DNA of 64,000 nucleotides from Escherichia coli. Its GTDB lineage: Bacteria > Pseudomonadota > Gammaproteobacteria > Enterobacterales > Enterobacteriaceae. This document shows, piece by piece, positions 15,528-26,447 of the stretch. The number at the start of each line of letters is the position of its first letter. Position 1 is the first letter of the stretch. The translations under genes and the position numbers were made by a program. The notes beneath the pieces were generated by a model. The model did no database searches. It was not told where the DNA came from and worked only from the letters and a program-made list of their open reading frames with translations. The stretch lies in NCBI RefSeq assembly GCF_029227855.1, contig NZ_CP074356.1. One strand, written 5' to 3'.

Positions 15528-15599
15528 TCAAGAGCAAATTCTGTCACTTCTCCTAATGAAGTGAACCGCTTAGTAACAGGACAGATTCCGCATGACTGA
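15513..15599 (+). CDS. uof: Uof, 28-codon leader peptide translationally coupled to fur
   Basis: ATG at 15513 to TGA at 15597-15599 (MIRIISRANSVTSPNEVNRLVTGQIPHD); overlaps the fur start by 8 nt. Confidence 0.75.
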   Translation: MIRIISRANSVTSPNEVNRLVTGQIPHD

Positions 15600-16038
15600 T
15601 AACAATACCGCCCTAAAGAAAGCTGGCCTGAAAGTAACACTTCCTCGCTTGAAAATCCTGGAAGTTCTTCAGGAGCCGGACAACCATCACGTCAGTGCGG
15701 AAGATTTATACAAACGTCTGATCGATATGGGTGAAGAAATTGGTCTGGCTACGGTATATCGCGTACTGAACCAGTTTGACGACGCTGGTATCGTCACCCG
15801 CCACAATTTTGAAGGCGGTAAATCCGTATTTGAACTGACACAGCAACATCACCACGATCACCTGATCTGCCTCGACTGCGGCAAGGTAATCGAATTTAGT
15901 GATGATTCCATCGAAGCGCGTCAGCGTGAAATTGCCGCAAAACATGGCATTCGCCTGACTAACCACAGTCTCTATCTTTACGGTCACTGTGCCGAAGGCG
16001 ATTGCCGCGAAGATGAGCACGCGCACGAAGGCAAATAA
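15592..16038 (+). CDS. fur: Ferric uptake regulator Fur (148 aa)
   Basis: ORF track 148 aa MTDNNTALKKAGLKVTLPRLKILEVLQEPDNHHVSAEDLY... identical in form to E. coli Fur. Confidence 0.97.
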   Translation: MTDNNTALKKAGLKVTLPRLKILEVLQEPDNHHVSAEDLYKRLIDMGEEIGLATVYRVLNQFDDAGIVTRHNFEGGKSVFELTQQHHHDHLICLDCGKVIEFSDDSIEARQREIAAKHGIRLTNHSLYLYGHCAEGDCREDEHAHEGK

Positions 16039-16094: not shown

Positions 16095-16812
16095 AATAAA
16101 TATCCTCCGGCATAGCCGGAGGTTTTTCAAATGCGCCTATAAGGCTCTCTTACCAGCCGCGCCCTAACAGGCGCACACGATCTGACATTTGCATCCAACT
16201 TCGTTACTTACGGCCCGTAAACGGGCTGCCCGGATAGGGAATCGATAACTGCTCTCCCATTTTATCCTCTTCAAGCTGGTGCTTTATGTAATCCTGTATC
16301 TTCGCCGTGTTCTTACCCACCGTATCGACGTAGTACCCTCTGCACCAGAACTCCCTGTTCCTGTATTTGAATTTCAAATCACCAAACTGCTCGTAAAGCA
16401 TCAGACTGCTTTTCCCTTTCAGATATCCCATAAAGCCGGATACGCTCATTTTGGGCGGGATCTCCACAAGCATATGGATATGATCTGCACAGCATTCAGC
16501 TTCCAGAATCCGTACACTTTTCCACTCACACAGCTTTCTCAAAATACTGCCTATTGCTCTACGCTTCTCTCTGTAGAACACCTGTCTTCGGTATTTTGGC
16601 GCAAAAACTATGTGATATTTACAGTTCCATCGGGTGTGCGCTAAGCTCTTTTCGTTCCCCATTGGGACCCCCTTTTGATTTCTTGTTTGACACTTGCAGT
16701 TGCCAGACCGCAAGGTGTTTTAACAAATCAAAAGGGGTTTTAATAACTGGCTTAAAGCTGAAAGCTTTCCGGAACCCCCAGCCTAGCTGGGGGTTTTCTG
16801 TGCACAAGAAAA
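16095..16812 (-). mobile_element. IS200: IS200 insertion sequence (about 0.71 kb; IS200/IS605 family), boundaries +/- 15 bp
   Basis: Contains the 152-aa HUH/Y1 transposase gene, a perfect subterminal palindrome cccccagc-cta-gctggggg (16775-16793) upstream of tnpA, and a second hairpin cctccggc-ata-gccggagg (16104-16122) near the other end. The fur-chiQ spacer is about 0.7 kb longer than I recall for K-12. Confidence 0.85.
16204..16662 (-). CDS. tnpA: IS200 transposase TnpA (152 aa)
   Basis: ORF 16204..16713; start at MGNEKSLAHTRWNCKYHIVFAPKYRR...; HUH motif HIHMLVEI and catalytic-Tyr region YYVDTVG. Confidence 0.92.
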   Translation of the reverse strand: MGNEKSLAHTRWNCKYHIVFAPKYRRQVFYREKRRAIGSILRKLCEWKSVRILEAECCADHIHMLVEIPPKMSVSGFMGYLKGKSSLMLYEQFGDLKFKYRNREFWCRGYYVDTVGKNTAKIQDYIKHQLEEDKMGEQLSIPYPGSPFTGRK

Positions 16813-16832: not shown

Positions 16833-17159
16833 TTATTTGTTATTACTGCGAATTTCCTGCCAGACCTTATCACAGTCGGCTTTTACCGCCTGATCATTTC
16901 CGGTTTGCGTTGCGCGCAGACACTGCTGATAATCCAGTACGCGGACACTTTCCTGATCGGCAAACTGCTGATGTTGTTTCTCTTTCTTCAGCACGTTTAA
17001 CACGCTCTGGCAGGCTTCAATTTTTTCTGGCGAACCTTGTGCGGTGTTGATACAGGCGCTGTATGCCTCTTTCAGACGGCTGTCTTCCTGTGGCGCGGTT
17101 GATTGCGCACAAGCCACCAGCCCCGATGCCATCATGGCGATGAGAATCAGTTTTTTCAT
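16833..17159 (-). CDS. chiQ: Lipoprotein ChiQ (108 aa)
   Basis: ORF track 108 aa MKKLILIAMMASGLVACAQ...; downstream of chiP in the chiPQ operon. Confidence 0.9.
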   Translation of the reverse strand: MKKLILIAMMASGLVACAQSTAPQEDSRLKEAYSACINTAQGSPEKIEACQSVLNVLKKEKQHQQFADQESVRVLDYQQCLRATQTGNDQAVKADCDKVWQEIRSNNK

Positions 17160-17208
17160 AGCAAATTCCTCAAACGTGCGGCAGGCACAAAACCTGCCGC
17201 GTCGGGCA

Positions 17209-18615
17209 TCAGAAGATGGTGAATGGTGCGATTACCATAAATTTCACGTCACGCTCATCCTGGAAGATGTTGCCGTAACCACCGCCCCAGCTTGGGATGT
17301 CGGAGTGGTTGTCGTATTCGGTGAAGTGCAGTTTGAACATCGTGCCTTTGGCGCGGCCGTCCTGAATGGTGTAAACCGCATCCAGGCTATATGCAGACTC
17401 TTCAATAGTCCGGTTCTTGTCGTAGTACGCATCCGGATTGCTCTGCCAGGTAGCGGGTTTAGCATCCCATGCGTAAACGTAGGAAGCGCCGATGGCGAAG
17501 CCTGGAAGATTCCAGTTTTTCAGGTCATACATCGCACCGAAGAAGACCGCTTTTTCGCCGTTAGCGTTGAAGTCGGAACGGTTATCCCACCAGATATCCA
17601 GGCGGCCGTTGGAGGAAGCGTAGGTTGGAGTCATACGTTGCAGGAAGTATCCCTGCTGACCGTCGGCTTTAACCCAGGTGCCTTCCAGACGCAAATCCAC
17701 TACGTCAGCCGCCCGGTAACCAAAGGTCAACGCTTGCAGCCAGGCGGTGCCGTCATAAAGATCGTTGACGCTGCGATCGTCAACTTTATCGCGCGTACCA
17801 TAGAACTGGTAGCTGGTGGTTAACGGGCTACCGGCGATATCAAATTTGTAGCTGGCTTTGGCAAAATATTGATCGATATACCCTTCCGCCTGACCAAATG
17901 CCGCTTCCAGTACGAAGTTATTTTTGAAGTCGTATTTCGCACCGATGGAGTGAAGATAATCAACTTTGGTGGTTTTATCGTTCTGATAAAACTCATCCAT
18001 TTCCAGATGCCACGGTGCTTTGTATTCGTTGGTCCACATGTAGGAGAAACTCAACGCACCAGCATCGCCGTAATCAAAATTCGCCCCGGCTTCCGCCCCC
18101 TGATAAGTACCCGGCATAAAGCTCCAGTGCGGCGCTAACAGCGTTTGACCAGTTGGCTGAATGTAACCTGCCCTCGCCCACACCGGACCGTATTTAAATT
18201 TGGCCGCTGCTTTATACAGGCTTATACCGCTTTTGTCGCCGGACCAGTCTTCGTCATAGGCTTTATTACTTTTTGAAAACGCGATTTCGTTCGGGTGAGA
18301 GCTGTCGCCGTTTTCCGCCATTTCAATCGCCGTAAACGCAGCAATATCAAGGCCGAACATATCAGCAGCATAACCAGACTGAAAATCGAGGTTGGCGTTC
18401 CAGGTGGAGTGAGAAAGGTTGGTTTTGTATTTGTCGCCGTCGGTAACATCTTTACGGTCGCGTTCACGCTGCCAGTAATGGATACCGCCGGTTAAGGTTG
18501 AATCGTCGATGAATCCTTCGGCGCGAGCCTCCGGCATTGCCATAAAGCCCGACATTGCTGTAACACCGGCGATAGCCAGCGCCAGCGTACTACGTTTGCC
18601 ACTAAACGTACGCAT
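17209..18615 (-). CDS. chiP: Chitoporin ChiP, OprD-family outer membrane porin (468 aa)
   Basis: ORF track 468 aa [32 protein letters not shown]... ending in a C-terminal Phe. Confidence 0.93.
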
Positions 18616-18723
18616 GGGTTAATCCTCTTTGACGTATAAATTGCTGCACCAAAGGTGAACAGCGAAAAAAATAAAAATTAAAAAAGTAGCGTTGAGAAAA
18701 GTCTCGCTGACTACAGGAACAGA

Positions 18724-18746
18724 CTATTTTTCGCGACGCGAATTAT
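18724..18746. promoter_or_regulatory. Candidate NagC operator in the chiP promoter region
   Basis: Near-palindrome ctatttttcgcgacgcgaattat resembling the NagC operator; chiP is a known NagC target. Confidence 0.5.
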
Positions 18747-18969
18747 CAATCTCTTTCTGTAACCAGAATGTAAGAACATGAGCAACCGCACATATTTTGA
18801 TGATTTTTGTTACAAGGCTTAAGTTTGCAGTTGAAAGGCTTGCAGAAGAATAAAAGCGTGAATTTCCAGCAAGATGAAAACGGTTACATTTTATTTAATT
18901 ATGGTTTGTGATTTTAAATTTGTTTTATGGATAAATTGCGAAGCGGAATTAATTCGCGAAGAAAAGCAG

Positions 18970-18999
18970 AAAAAAACGCCGCAGAGCGCGGCGTTTTGG
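18970..18999. terminator. Bidirectional terminator downstream of glnS
   Basis: aaaaaaacgccgc-agagc-gcggcgtttt; stem acgccgc / gcggcgt flanked by A and T runs. Confidence 0.65.
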
Positions 19000-19007
19000 A
19001 TTGTTTG

Positions 19008-19055
19008 CATGTTTCATGCCGGATGCGGCGTAAACGCCTCACCCGGCCTGGTAGA
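19008..19055. repeat. REP element
   Basis: catgccggatgcggcgtaaacgcctcacccggcctggta. Confidence 0.6.
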
Positions 19056-19063
19056 ACTTAAAA

Positions 19064-20728
19064 TTACTCGCCTACTTTCGCCCAGGTATCACGCAGCCCA
19101 ACGGTGCGATTAAATACCGGTTTTTCCGCCGTAGAATGGCGGCTGTCGAGGCAGAAATAACCTTCACGCTCAAACTGGAATGCTTTACCCGCTACCGCGT
19201 CTTTCAGAGACGGTTCAGCAAAGCCCTGTTTGATCACCAGCGATTCCGGGTTAATCACCGACAGGAAATCATCCGCAGCACCTGGGTTCGGCACGCTGAA
19301 CAGACGATCGTACAGGCGGATTTCAACCGGCAGCGCATGTGCCGCGCTCACCCAGTGGATAACACCTTTCACTTTACGACCATCTGCCGGATCTTTGCTT
19401 AAGGTGTCGGCGTCATAAGTACAGAAGATGGTGGTGATATTGCCTTCGGCATCTTTCTCCACGCGTTCTGCCTTAATGACGTAAGCATTACGCAGACGCA
19501 CTTCTTTACCCAGCACCAGACGCTTGTACTGCTTGTTAGCTTCTTCGCGGAAATCGGCGCGATCGATCCAAATCTCACCGCTAAACGGCACCTGGCGGCT
19601 GCCCATTTCCGGTTTGTTCGGATGGTTCGGCATAGTGACCATTTCGCCTTCGCCCTGATAGTTTTCGATAACCAGTTTCACCGGATCGATAACCGCCATT
19701 GCGCGCGGCGCATTTTCGTTGAGATCTTCACGGATGCAGGATTCCAGCGACGCCATCTCAATGGTGTTGTCCTGCTTGGTCACGCCGATGCGTTTGCAGA
19801 ACTCACGAATAGAAGCCGCAGTGTAACCACGACGACGCAGACCGGAAATGGTCGGCATACGCGGGTCATCCCAGCCTTCAACGTGCTTGTCGGTCACCAG
19901 TAGGTTCAGCTTACGCTTGGACATCACAGTGTATTCCAGATTCAGGCGCGAGAATTCGTACTGGCGCGGGTGAACAGGAATGGTGATGTTGTCCAGCACC
20001 CAGTCGTACAGGCGACGGTTGTCCTGGAACTCAAGCGTACACAGAGAGTGCGTAATACCTTCCAGCGCATCGCTGATGCAATGGGTGAAGTCGTACATCG
20101 GGTAGATGCACCACTTGTTGCCAGTCTGGTGGTGTTCAGCAAATTTAATGCGGTACAGCACCGGATCGCGCATTACGATAAATGGCGACGCCATGTCGAT
20201 TTTCGCACGCAGGCAGGCTTTACCTTCTTCAAAACCACCGGTACGCATTTTTTCGAACAGCGCCAGGTTCTCTTCAACGCTGCGGTCGCGGTACGGGCTG
20301 TTTTTACCCGGCTGCGTCAGGGTGCCGCGGTATTCGCGGATCTGTTCCGGTGTCAGTTCATCAACGTACGCCAGGCCTTTATTGATCAGTTCGATCGCAT
20401 AGGCGTGGAGCTGATCAAAATAATCGGAGGAGTAACGGACGTTACCAGACCAGTGAAAACCTAACCACTCAACGTCGTTTTTGATCGACTCAACATACTC
20501 GATATCTTCTTTTACCGGGTTAGTGTCGTCGAAACGCAGGTTGCACTGGCCTTTATAGTCCTGGGCGATCCCGAAGTTCAGGCAGATAGATTTCGCATGG
20601 CCAATATGCAGATAGCCATTCGGCTCCGGCGGGAAACGGGTGTGTACTGTGGTGTGCTTACCACTGGCCAGATCTTCATCGATGATCTGACGAATAAAGT
20701 TAGTCGGGCGGGCTTCTGCCTCACTCAT
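19064..20728 (-). CDS. glnS: Glutaminyl-tRNA synthetase (554 aa)
   Basis: ORF track 554 aa [47 protein letters not shown]... with HIGH and VMSKR motifs. Confidence 0.97.
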
Positions 20729-20930: not shown

Positions 20931-22877
20931 TTACTTTTTGATTTCATACAGCGGTGTTTGACCCGCCATGACATGGCCCTGAGCTTTAATGATCAAGCCG
21001 CTGAAATCGTCGATATTGCTGCAAACCACCGGGCTAATCATCGAACGGGCGTTAGCGTTCAGGTAATCCAGATCCATTTCCAGAATCGGTTGCCCTGCGC
21101 TTACTTGCGCGCCCTCTTCCACCAGACGTTTAAAACCTTTACCTTCCAGCGCTACGGTGTCGATACCCATATGGACGACGATCTCCGCGCCTTTTTCGGT
21201 TTCCAGGCAGAACGCGTGGTTGGTATTGAAGATTTTCACGATTGTCCCTGCGGCTGGTGATACGACGATTTTATCTGTCGGTTTCACCGCCACACCGTCA
21301 CCCACCGCTTTGCTGGCGAATGCTTCGTCAGGAACCTGATCCAGTGCCACAACATCACCGGTAATCGGCGATACCAGCTCCGCGATAGACACCGCGTTTG
21401 GTACAGCCTGCGGTTTTGCTACAGGAGCGGCAGTTGCCGGAGTTGCTTCAGCTGACGCAGCTGCTACCGGACCTCGGGCAACAACTTTCTTCATTGCATC
21501 GCCGATGGATTCTGCTTTCGCGCCAACAATTACCTGGATAGTCTGTTTGTTCAGTTTCACAACCCCAGAAGCACCCAGACGTTTACACATCGTATCGTTT
21601 ACGCGTGCAGAGTCAGCCACTGTAAGGCGCAGACGGGTGATACAGGCGTCAATTGCTTTCAGGTTGTCAGTGCCACCAACCGCAGCAATATAGTTGGTCG
21701 CCAGTTGATTGAGGCCTTCTTCAGTGTTGCTGTTGGCTTCTTCAGTAACGATCTCATCTTCTTTATCTTCACGACCCGGCGTTTTCAGGTTGAACATGCG
21801 GATAACCAAACTGAACACCACGAAGTAGATAGCGAAGAAGACAACACCCATCACCAGCAGCATCCAGACGTTCTGGCTGGCGGCCGGCAGGTTATACATC
21901 AACGCGTAGTCGATAGCCCCCGCAGAGAAGGAGAAGCCCGCGTGGATACCCAGCAGCGTTGCCACAAACAGGCTGATACCGGTCAGCAGTGCGTGCAGGA
22001 GGTACAGCAGCGGCGCAAGGAACATGAACAGGAATTCCAGCGGCTCAGTCACACCGGTCAGGAACGCAGTAACAGCAACAGAAAGCAGCATCCCGCCAAC
22101 CATCGGACGACGCTCTTTCGGTGCTGCGAAGTACATCGCCAGCGCCGCACCTGGCAGACCGAACATCATAATCGGGAAGAAGCCGGACATGAACATCCCC
22201 GCGGTGCCGTCACCGGCATAGAAGCGGTTGATATCACCGTGGAAAACCGTTCCCGCCGCGTTGGTGAATTCACCAATCTGGAACCAGGCGATGGTGTTCA
22301 GCACCTGATGCAGACCGGTTGGGATCAGCAGACGGTTGATGAAACCAAAGATACCGGAACCCAGCGCGCCCGCAGAAACGATCCACTCGCCGCCTGCATG
22401 GATAGCGTGCTGTACCGGCGGCCAGACGTAACCAAAAATGGCCGCCAGCACCAGACAGAAGAAGCCGGTGGCGATCGGCACAAAGCGTTTGCCGCCGAAG
22501 AAGCTCAGGAAGTCCGGCAGTTTAATATCGGACCAACGGTTATAGGCTGCGCCACCAACCAGACCGGTAATGATACCCGCCAGTACACCCATGTTAATTT
22601 CTGGGTTGATGGTCACCATCGCTTTGGTTAACACAAAGTAACCTACCGCACCCGCCAGTGCCGCCGCACCTGCGCTGTCTTTCGACCAGCTGGATGCCAC
22701 GCCGATGGCGAAGATTAATGCGAGGTTATCAAAAATCGCACCGCCCGCCTGGGCAATAAACGCAACGTTAAGTAAATCTGGCTGACCGAATCGCAGCAAC
22801 AGCGCCGCCACCGGCAGCACCGCGATAGGGAGCTGTAACGCCCTACCGAGTCGCTGGAAAAAACCTAAAATATTCAT
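20931..22877 (-). CDS. nagE: PTS N-acetylglucosamine-specific EIICBA component (648 aa)
   Basis: ORF track 648 aa MNILGFFQRLGRALQLPIAVLP...; length matches E. coli NagE. Confidence 0.95.
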   Translation of the reverse strand: MNILGFFQRLGRALQLPIAVLPVAALLLRFGQPDLLNVAFIAQAGGAIFDNLALIFAIGVASSWSKDSAGAAALAGAVGYFVLTKAMVTINPEINMGVLAGIITGLVGGAAYNRWSDIKLPDFLSFFGGKRFVPIATGFFCLVLAAIFGYVWPPVQHAIHAGGEWIVSAGALGSGIFGFINRLLIPTGLHQVLNTIAWFQIGEFTNAAGTVFHGDINRFYAGDGTAGMFMSGFFPIMMFGLPGAALAMYFAAPKERRPMVGGMLLSVAVTAFLTGVTEPLEFLFMFLAPLLYLLHALLTGISLFVATLLGIHAGFSFSAGAIDYALMYNLPAASQNVWMLLVMGVVFFAIYFVVFSLVIRMFNLKTPGREDKEDEIVTEEANSNTEEGLNQLATNYIAAVGGTDNLKAIDACITRLRLTVADSARVNDTMCKRLGASGVVKLNKQTIQVIVGAKAESIGDAMKKVVARGPVAAASAEATPATAAPVAKPQAVPNAVSIAELVSPITGDVVALDQVPDEAFASKAVGDGVAVKPTDKIVVSPAAGTIVKIFNTNHAFCLETEKGAEIVVHMGIDTVALEGKGFKRLVEEGAQVSAGQPILEMDLDYLNANARSMISPVVCSNIDDFSGLIIKAQGHVMAGQTPLYEIKK

Positions 22878-22989: not shown

Positions 22990-23120
22990 GTGTGTGAAAA
23001 TTTAATTCGTATCGCAAATTAAACGCGTGTCTTTTGTGAGTTTTGTCACCAAATATCGTTATCATCACTCCCTTTTACTGGCTAAACCAGAAAACTTATT
23101 TTATCATTCAAAAAATCAGG
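22990..23120. promoter_or_regulatory. Divergent nagE / nagBACD control region with a CAP site (23034-23049) and NagC operator-like palindromes
   Basis: tgtgagttttgtcacc matches CAP consensus TGTGA-N6-TCACA; flanking palindrome tttaattcgtatcgcaaattaaa resembles a NagC operator. Confidence 0.6.
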
Positions 23121-23209: not shown

Positions 23210-25218
<2,009 letters not shown>

Positions 25219-25226
25219 GAGAAAGT

Positions 25227-26447
25227 ATGACACCAGGCGGACAAGCTCAGATAGGTAATGTTGATCTCGTAAAACAGCTTAACAGCGCGGCGGTTTATCG
25301 CCTGATTGACCAGTATGGGCCAATCTCGCGGATTCAGATTGCCGAGCAAAGCCAGCTTGCCCCCGCCAGCGTAACCAAAATTACGCGTCAGCTTATCGAA
25401 CGCGGGCTGATCAAAGAAGTTGATCAGCAGGCCTCCACCGGGGGCCGCCGCGCTATCTCTATCGTCACCGAAACCCGCAATTTCCACGCAATCGGTGTAC
25501 GGCTTGGTCGTCACGACGCCACCATTACTCTGTTCGATCTCAGTAGCAAAGTGCTGGCAGAAGAACATTACCCGCTACCGGAACGTACCCAGCAGACGCT
25601 GGAACATGCCCTGCTGAATGCCATTGCTCAGTTTATTGATAGCTACCAGCGCAAGCTGCGCGAGCTGATTGCTATTTCCGTGATCCTGCCAGGGCTTGTT
25701 GACCCGGACAGCGGCAAAATTCATTACATGCCGCATATTCAGGTAGAAAACTGGGGGCTGGTAGAAGCACTGGAAGAGCGTTTTAAAGTGACCTGTTTTG
25801 TCGGCCACGATATCCGTAGTCTGGCGCTGGCAGAGCACTACTTCGGTGCAAGTCAGGATTGCGAAGACTCCATTTTAGTGCGTGTCCATCGCGGGACCGG
25901 GGCAGGGATTATCTCTAACGGGCGCATTTTTATTGGCCGCAACGGTAACGTCGGTGAAATTGGCCATATTCAGGTCGAACCGCTGGGTGAACGCTGCCAC
26001 TGCGGCAACTTTGGCTGCCTGGAAACTATTGCTGCCAACGCTGCTATTGAACAACGGGTGTTGAATCTGTTAAAGCAGGGCTACCAGAGCCGCGTGCCGC
26101 TGGACGACTGCACCATAAAAACTATCTGCAAAGCTGCGAACAAAGGCGATAGCCTGGCGTCGGAAGTGATTGAGTATGTGGGTCGTCATCTGGGCAAAAC
26201 CATCGCCATTGCGATCAACTTATTTAATCCGCAAAAAATTGTTATTGCCGGTGAAATCACCGAAGCCGATAAAGTGCTGCTCCCTGCTATTGAAAGCTGC
26301 ATTAATACCCAGGCGCTGAAGGCGTTTCGTACTAATCTGCCGGTGGTACGTTCTGAGCTGGATCACCGCTCGGCAATCGGCGCTTTTGCGCTGGTAAAAC
26401 GCGCCATGCTCAACGGTATTTTGCTCCAGCATTTGCTGGAAAATTAA
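25227..26447 (+). CDS. nagC: ROK-family transcriptional regulator NagC (406 aa)
   Basis: ORF track 406 aa MTPGGQAQIGNVDLVKQLNSAAVYRLIDQYGPISRIQIAEQSQLAPASVTKITRQL... Confidence 0.97.
   Translation: MTPGGQAQIGNVDLVKQLNSAAVYRLIDQYGPISRIQIAEQSQLAPASVTKITRQLIERGLIKEVDQQASTGGRRAISIVTETRNFHAIGVRLGRHDATITLFDLSSKVLAEEHYPLPERTQQTLEHALLNAIAQFIDSYQRKLRELIAISVILPGLVDPDSGKIHYMPHIQVENWGLVEALEERFKVTCFVGHDIRSLALAEHYFGASQDCEDSILVRVHRGTGAGIISNGRIFIGRNGNVGEIGHIQVEPLGERCHCGNFGCLETIAANAAIEQRVLNLLKQGYQSRVPLDDCTIKTICKAANKGDSLASEVIEYVGRHLGKTIAIAINLFNPQKIVIAGEITEADKVLLPAIESCINTQALKAFRTNLPVVRSELDHRSAIGAFALVKRAMLNGILLQHLLEN

Follow-up and report, generated by a model that had tools for sequence, protein, structure and literature searches.

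A NagC operator and a ChiX target in the chiP control region of an Escherichia coli chromosome are those described for K-12

The chitoporin operon chiPQ (ybfMN) examined here lies in a stretch of 64,000 nucleotides of an Escherichia coli chromosome, called the window throughout, and an insertion sequence sits just downstream of its chiQ gene. The question that this locus raises is whether the DNA in front of chiP is still the native control region of the operon, working in the two layers described for K-12 and Salmonella, one transcriptional and the other mediated by the small RNA ChiX. We are highly confident that it is, and we found nothing in the evidence that contradicts this reading.

The window runs in reverse orientation relative to K-12, with the order nagB/nagE-glnS-chiP-chiQ-IS200C-fur; the glnS-chiP-chiQ order is the same as in K-12, and nagA is also among the nag genes of the window. 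The functional strand of the control region is the minus strand, as for chiP itself, a point absent from the initial annotation. The genes and boundaries that matter for the argument are as follows.

15592-16038, plus strand: fur
16095-16805, minus strand: IS200C, 711 bp, with tnpA at 16204-16662 (boundaries from the comparison with MG1655, uncertain by 2 nt)
16833-17159, minus strand: chiQ coding sequence, 108 amino acids, a YbfN lipoprotein according to Pfam, intact
17160-17208, minus strand: spacer between chiP and chiQ
17209-18615, minus strand: chiP coding sequence, 468 amino acids, an OprD-family chitoporin according to Pfam, intact
18973-18997, minus strand: intrinsic terminator of glnS, where the chiP control region has its upstream boundary
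19064-20728, minus strand: glnS
20931-22877, minus strand: nagE
23210-24010, plus strand: nagB
25227-26447, plus strand: nagC, encoding the cognate repressor (719 bits with NCBIfam equivalog NF047937, whose cutoff is 650)

The nagC gene is thus present and intact in the same window, 6.5 kb from the chiP control region. A 521-bp query covering the DNA upstream of chiP was matched in 5,413 of 5,426 complete E. coli genomes (at least 80% of its length, 90-100% identity), three of them at 100% identity. Compared with MG1655, the spacer between glnS and chiP lacks approximately 130 bp of REP/BIME repeats (19000-19063 in the window). One REP is left, and it produces a weak naRNA4 match at 18971-19048. 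We rejected this match (36 bits, where the gathering score is 59.5), along with a weak Rfam match to RefA9 in the same spacer, as REP or terminator sequence.

The initial annotation had pointed to a palindrome resembling a NagC operator, and the string that it gave, ctatttttcgcgacgcgaattat, is present at 18724-18746 on the plus strand. The canonical 23-bp operator lies one base off this string, and it proves to be the known NagC operator of chiP rather than a site that is merely NagC-like. It has a perfect TTCGCG-T-CGCGAA core flanked by AT-rich arms, with 8 of 11 arm positions symmetric, and it is letter-for-letter identical to the “ybfM proximal” site, which Table 1 of PMC3098098 (Oberto 2010) includes among experimentally known NagC sites and which the genome scan in that study also found as a top match for chiP. 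The operator and the promoter elements around it are listed below.

18725-18747, minus strand: proximal NagC operator of chiP, GATAATTCGCGTCGCGAAAAATA, from -33 to -11, centred at -22
18744-18749, minus strand: -35 hexamer TTGATA, 5/6 to consensus, with a 17-bp spacer, invariant across genera
18721-18726, minus strand: -10 hexamer TAGTCT, 3/6 to consensus, conserved as TANNCT (T-12, A-11 and T-7)

Scanning with a symmetrised, leave-one-out NagC matrix built from the nine other sites in the same Table 1, we observed a score of 22.1 bits for the chiP operator, which only the nagE operator at 23001-23023 (22.3 bits) exceeds in the 64-kb window; the best site outside that table reached 13.4 bits. 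Both nagE/nagB operators of the table (23001-23023 and 23095-23117) occur verbatim in the window, and they belong to the same 23-bp operator family and respond to the same repressor as the chiP site. The arrangement differs: nagE-nagB has two strong operators approximately 94 bp apart centre to centre, which act by looping, whereas the second NagC-like site of chiP is weak in E. coli and lies 223 bp off. Looping at chiP is a candidate only.

Placement of the promoter rests on K-12 annotation and on conservation. The start site, G at 18714, was transferred from K-12, where the first base of the RefSeq-annotated ChiZ RNA aligns to it. Relative to this base, TAGTCT occupies -12 to -7 and TTGATA -35 to -30, so that with the K-12 start as reference the operator overlaps both hexamers; its last two bases are the first two of TAGTCT. 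Operator, -35, -10 and the context of the start site are base-for-base those of the K-12 chiP (ybfM) promoter. A simple promoter scan of the sequence did not call the chiP promoter, because its -10 element matches consensus at only 3/6 positions; a site that the scan did propose, at 18917-18888, is of a kind that occurs at chance rate and was disregarded.

Since the operator spans -33 to -11, bound NagC would occlude RNA polymerase. For the identical K-12 sequence and for Salmonella, binding by NagC in vitro and repression that GlcNAc-6-P relieves in vivo are reported in the literature: NagC represses chiP and chb at low chitosugar levels (Plumbridge et al. 2014, summarised in PMC4098024), and in Salmonella a rho fusion driven by the chiP promoter required inactivation of nagC for adequate expression (bioRxiv 10.64898/2026.05.02.722398). 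The first layer of control would then consist of a sigma-70 promoter (TTGATA-17-TAGTCT, start 18714) with the NagC operator laid across its spacer and both hexamers. RNA polymerase would be excluded while NagC is bound, and chitosugars, through GlcNAc-6-P, would release the repressor.

The initial annotation also held that the 5' regulatory architecture is conserved, and at the species level this is borne out by the 61 bp from 18700 to 18760, which 5,355 of 5,426 complete E. coli genomes carry with 100% identity. The interval 18616-18870 comprises the leader, the core promoter with the operator, a conserved upstream block and approximately 55 bp of unconserved DNA. Aligned to MG1655, as the initial annotation had proposed, it differs at three positions only: two substitutions, at 18863 and at 18829, and an additional T in the T-run that ends at 18671. 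Operator, hexamers and ChiX site are all free of these differences. The two substitutions, the missing REP/BIME repeats and IS200C 3' of chiQ set the window apart from the K-12 chiP locus.

To look beyond the species, we scanned species-representative genomes with the pattern TTCGCGNCGCGAA-N75-105-CGTCAAAGAGGA and obtained 36 loci from Escherichia, Citrobacter, Enterobacter, Lelliottia, Leclercia, Silvania, Siccibacter, Shimwellia, Klebsiella indica and Entomohabitans. This set was preselected on the operator core and the ChiX site and therefore shows breadth, not universality; Salmonella is not matched by the exact pattern. In the alignment of the 36 loci from approximately ten enterobacterial genera we observed that TTGATAATTCGCG[T/A]CGCGAAAAATA is invariant, including 11 operator and -35 bases that lie outside the search pattern, while bases differ freely between loci at positions -6 to -2 and over most of the upstream DNA. 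As judged from this alignment, the invariant bases outside the pattern demonstrate selection on them. A separate observation concerns E. coli STEC388 (NZ_CP041425.1), in which homology to the chiP promoter breaks off exactly at the midpoint of the NagC operator and Mu-like prophage genes (com, mom and tail fibre) lie directly upstream of the break; a Mu-type prophage appears to have inserted in the operator of that strain.

Two other explanations of the palindrome have to be weighed against a NagC operator. One is that a CG core with AT-rich arms arose by chance in intergenic DNA and has no regulatory role. The intergenic DNA at chiP is indeed AT-rich, and a repeat search with arms of at least 10 nt did not list the palindrome. 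Among 20 million random 23-mers, however, none at window composition and one at AT-rich intergenic composition attained the leave-one-out score of 22.1 bits, and neither the invariance of the operator amid varying neighbouring bases nor its identity to a curated NagC operator (PMC3098098) is what a chance palindrome would give; the probability that we leave to it is negligible. The other is that the site serves mainly the paralogue Mlc, or both ROK repressors, rather than NagC specifically. NagC and Mlc have near-identical helix-turn-helix motifs and related 23-bp operators, and C-G pairs at positions +/-11 are typical of higher-affinity NagC sites (PMC4288165). At +11, where a C-G pair reportedly favours NagC, the chiP operator has A-T, but at -11 it does have a G-C pair. 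The site is moreover listed among NagC operators (PMC3098098), repression of chiP is ascribed to NagC (PMC4098024; bioRxiv 10.64898/2026.05.02.722398), and the logic of the regulon, from chitosugar to GlcNAc-6-P, fits NagC. We consider a role mainly or jointly for Mlc quite improbable, if somewhat less so than a chance origin, and retain the site as the NagC operator of chiP.

The second layer of control resides in the leader. The initial annotation had described a long leader, and its length can be set at 99 nt from the K-12 RefSeq annotation of ChiZ (b4808; 708236-708333 in MG1655, directly before chiP). The initial annotation did not mention that this leader is the annotated ChiX sponge ChiZ. 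The relevant features are the following.

18616-18714, minus strand: chiP 5' untranslated region, 99 nt, equal to K-12 ChiZ (b4808) plus one extra T
18665-18685, minus strand: U/A-rich tract UUUUUUAAUUUUUAUUUUUUU, 21 nt, upstream of the ChiX pairing site
18623-18634, minus strand: pairing site for ChiX, CGTCAAAGAGGA, which takes in the Shine-Dalgarno GAGG (18624-18627) located 8 nt ahead of the start codon

All 98 positions of K-12 ChiZ are identical in the leader, including the 12-nt ChiX target. The only difference is a U added to the U/A-rich tract, where the T-run at 18665-18671 (minus strand) has seven T residues versus six in K-12; the extra T is common to the three genomes that are 100% identical over the 521-bp query. 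The tract itself is likely the Hfq rim-binding region: a UA-rich region of this kind has been described in chiP mRNA, and we infer its match to the exact bases 18665-18685.

That this leader is a target of ChiX had been proposed in the initial annotation, and complementarity near the chiP ribosome-binding site was indeed found. We observed that CGTCAAAGAGGA, lying over the Shine-Dalgarno sequence, is a perfect 12-nt complement (12/12 Watson-Crick pairs) of UCCUCUUUGACG in K-12 ChiX, and that this complement occurs a single time in the window, both strands searched. In its predicted fold, ChiX of K-12 has a hairpin at the 5' end, a terminator and, between them, a single-stranded stretch. Duplexes computed with full-length ChiX against the leader were uninformative (an artefactual long-loop structure, with 9 of 500 shuffles as good) and were discarded; the scan was carried out instead with the single-stranded region of ChiX only. 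In that scan CGTCAAAGAGGA formed the best duplex in the window at -19.9 kcal/mol, the next being -16.5 kcal/mol (mean -5.3, standard deviation 2.4 kcal/mol over 25,588 windows). The pairing site is unpaired in the predicted fold of the leader, which shows no extra stability relative to shuffled sequences (z = -0.94). No intrinsic terminator was predicted within the leader, consistent with a Rho-dependent end of ChiZ.

The pairing of ChiX (also known as MicM, SroB or RybC) with chiP was reportedly described by Figueroa-Bossi and by Overgaard in 2009. It has been proven by compensatory mutations (PMC7815308, Adams 2021), and the leader fragment ChiZ, approximately 90 nt, accumulates in an Hfq-dependent manner, is ended by Rho and sponges ChiX (PMC7815308). 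When ChiX occupies the ribosome-binding site, an intragenic rut site becomes exposed and Rho terminates transcription within chiP, silencing chiQ (PMC6582626). The chiX gene was not found in the 64-kb window; 5,422 of 5,426 complete E. coli genomes have it, and chiX and the chb operon, both outside the window, are assumed from species-wide conservation to be present in this strain. With these elements the second layer would work through the 99-nt leader, its U/A-rich Hfq site and the 12-nt ChiX target over the Shine-Dalgarno sequence. The constitutively made ChiX would block translation of chiP, and blocked translation would lead to decay of the message and to Rho-dependent termination inside chiP, so that chiQ would be silenced as well. 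Two RNAs would in turn remove ChiX: the chbBC decoy, which chitobiose induces and which is encoded at another place in the genome, and ChiZ, the short transcript from the leader of chiP itself.

The location of this decoy is the one point on which the initial annotation has to be corrected. It had placed a chitosugar-induced anti-sRNA decoy in the spacer between chiP and chiQ, whereas in the literature the anti-ChiX decoy is the intergenic region between chbB and chbC in the chb operon mRNA (PMC7815308, PMC4098024). This “trap-mRNA” belongs to the same circuit and pairs with the same region of ChiX as the chiP leader; it lies in a different operon, outside the window. The spacer does contain a 9-nt match to ChiX, GAGGAATTT, centred on the Shine-Dalgarno sequence of chiQ and with a predicted duplex of -14.0 kcal/mol, which could be taken in favour of a decoy at 17160-17208. 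This value is weaker than those of all eight best ChiX sites in the window scan (-15.1 kcal/mol or stronger). The match is shorter in other Escherichia, reduced to a bare GAGGA in Citrobacter and gone in Enterobacter, and the silencing of chiQ is accounted for by Rho polarity (PMC6582626). A decoy in the chiP-chiQ spacer is thus very improbable, and we retain the chbBC region as the decoy. Pairing of ChiX at the chiQ ribosome-binding site was likewise rejected as a conserved feature, the match being unconserved beyond the Shine-Dalgarno sequence in other genera. The 9-nt complement is specific to the sequence of the window and some other E. coli.

Upstream of the core promoter, two further elements may contribute to transcription of chiP.

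18777-18792, minus strand: CRP-like site TGTGC-GGTTGC-TCATG, centred at -70.5, a candidate class I activator site
18948-18970, minus strand: candidate distal NagC-like site TCTGCTTTTCTTCGCGAATTAAT, centred at -245, 223 bp from the centre of the proximal operator and abutting the glnS terminator

By sequence match alone (7/10) the CRP-like site is not significant. Its TGTG and TCAT halves are kept at 90% or more across approximately ten genera, while the 6-bp spacer between them varies. CRP sites of class I, such as the one at malT, occupy this position. Together with the listing of ybfM as a CRP target in genomic SELEX (PMC3105977), the site suggests that cAMP-dependent activation probably acts on the promoter. 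A second CRP-like reading around -91, TGTAA-N6-TCATC, was rejected, its right half being unconserved.

The distal NagC-like site scores only 9.2 bits in the window with the leave-one-out NagC matrix. In the form ..TTCGCGATGCGAATTAAT it recurs 221-245 bp upstream of the proximal operator, at 10-19 bits, in Escherichia, Citrobacter, Leclercia, Silvania, Siccibacter, Shimwellia, Klebsiella indica and Entomohabitans; Enterobacter and Lelliottia have instead a nagB-type site, CTTATTTTT..AAAAAAGTTT, approximately 192 bp upstream. The position of the site is thus kept in many genera and its sequence is degenerate in E. coli. A candidate with a higher matrix score, at 18930-18952 (11.4 bits), is unconserved, and the positionally conserved site at 18948-18970 was preferred. 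The weak site at -245 may help repression by looping. The very label “proximal” in PMC3098098 suggests that a distal site is already known.

On the other side of the operon, the IS200 element that the initial annotation had noted just 3' of chiQ was confirmed as IS200C, its 5' leader matching Rfam STnc490 (146 bits) and its transposase Pfam Y1_Tnp, in agreement with the comparison to MG1655. Copies that are 100% identical are common elsewhere in E. coli. This one is inserted 27 nt past the stop codon of chiQ, between the small hairpin of chiQ and the fur-proximal terminator, and it leaves the chiP 5' control region untouched. It parts the chiQ hairpin from the terminator that chiQ reportedly shares with fur. 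At this place between chiQ and fur the insertion is private to the strain; none of the 5,426 complete RefSeq E. coli genomes has the chiQ-IS200C junction. An RNA from the chiQ 3' untranslated region has been proposed where IS200C sits (PMC10687069), and the insertion could change the 3' end of chiPQ or remove that RNA. We regard it as unlikely that either this effect of IS200C or a NagC loop of approximately 223 bp from the proximal operator to the degenerate distal site is at work; either may be already known or without consequence.

The chiP control region is real but already known, and it is essentially identical to that of K-12. It carries little weight as a discovery, and its analysis corrects the placement of the decoy. 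The full operator and promoter are frozen across approximately ten enterobacterial genera, the CRP-like and distal NagC-like sites are to be included in any dissection of chiP transcription, and the private IS200C insertion at the chiQ/fur terminator region is to be flagged. Regulation by NagC and ChiX makes chiP a textbook case of chitosugar uptake governed at the levels of both transcription and sRNA, and this regulation is unchanged in the strain.
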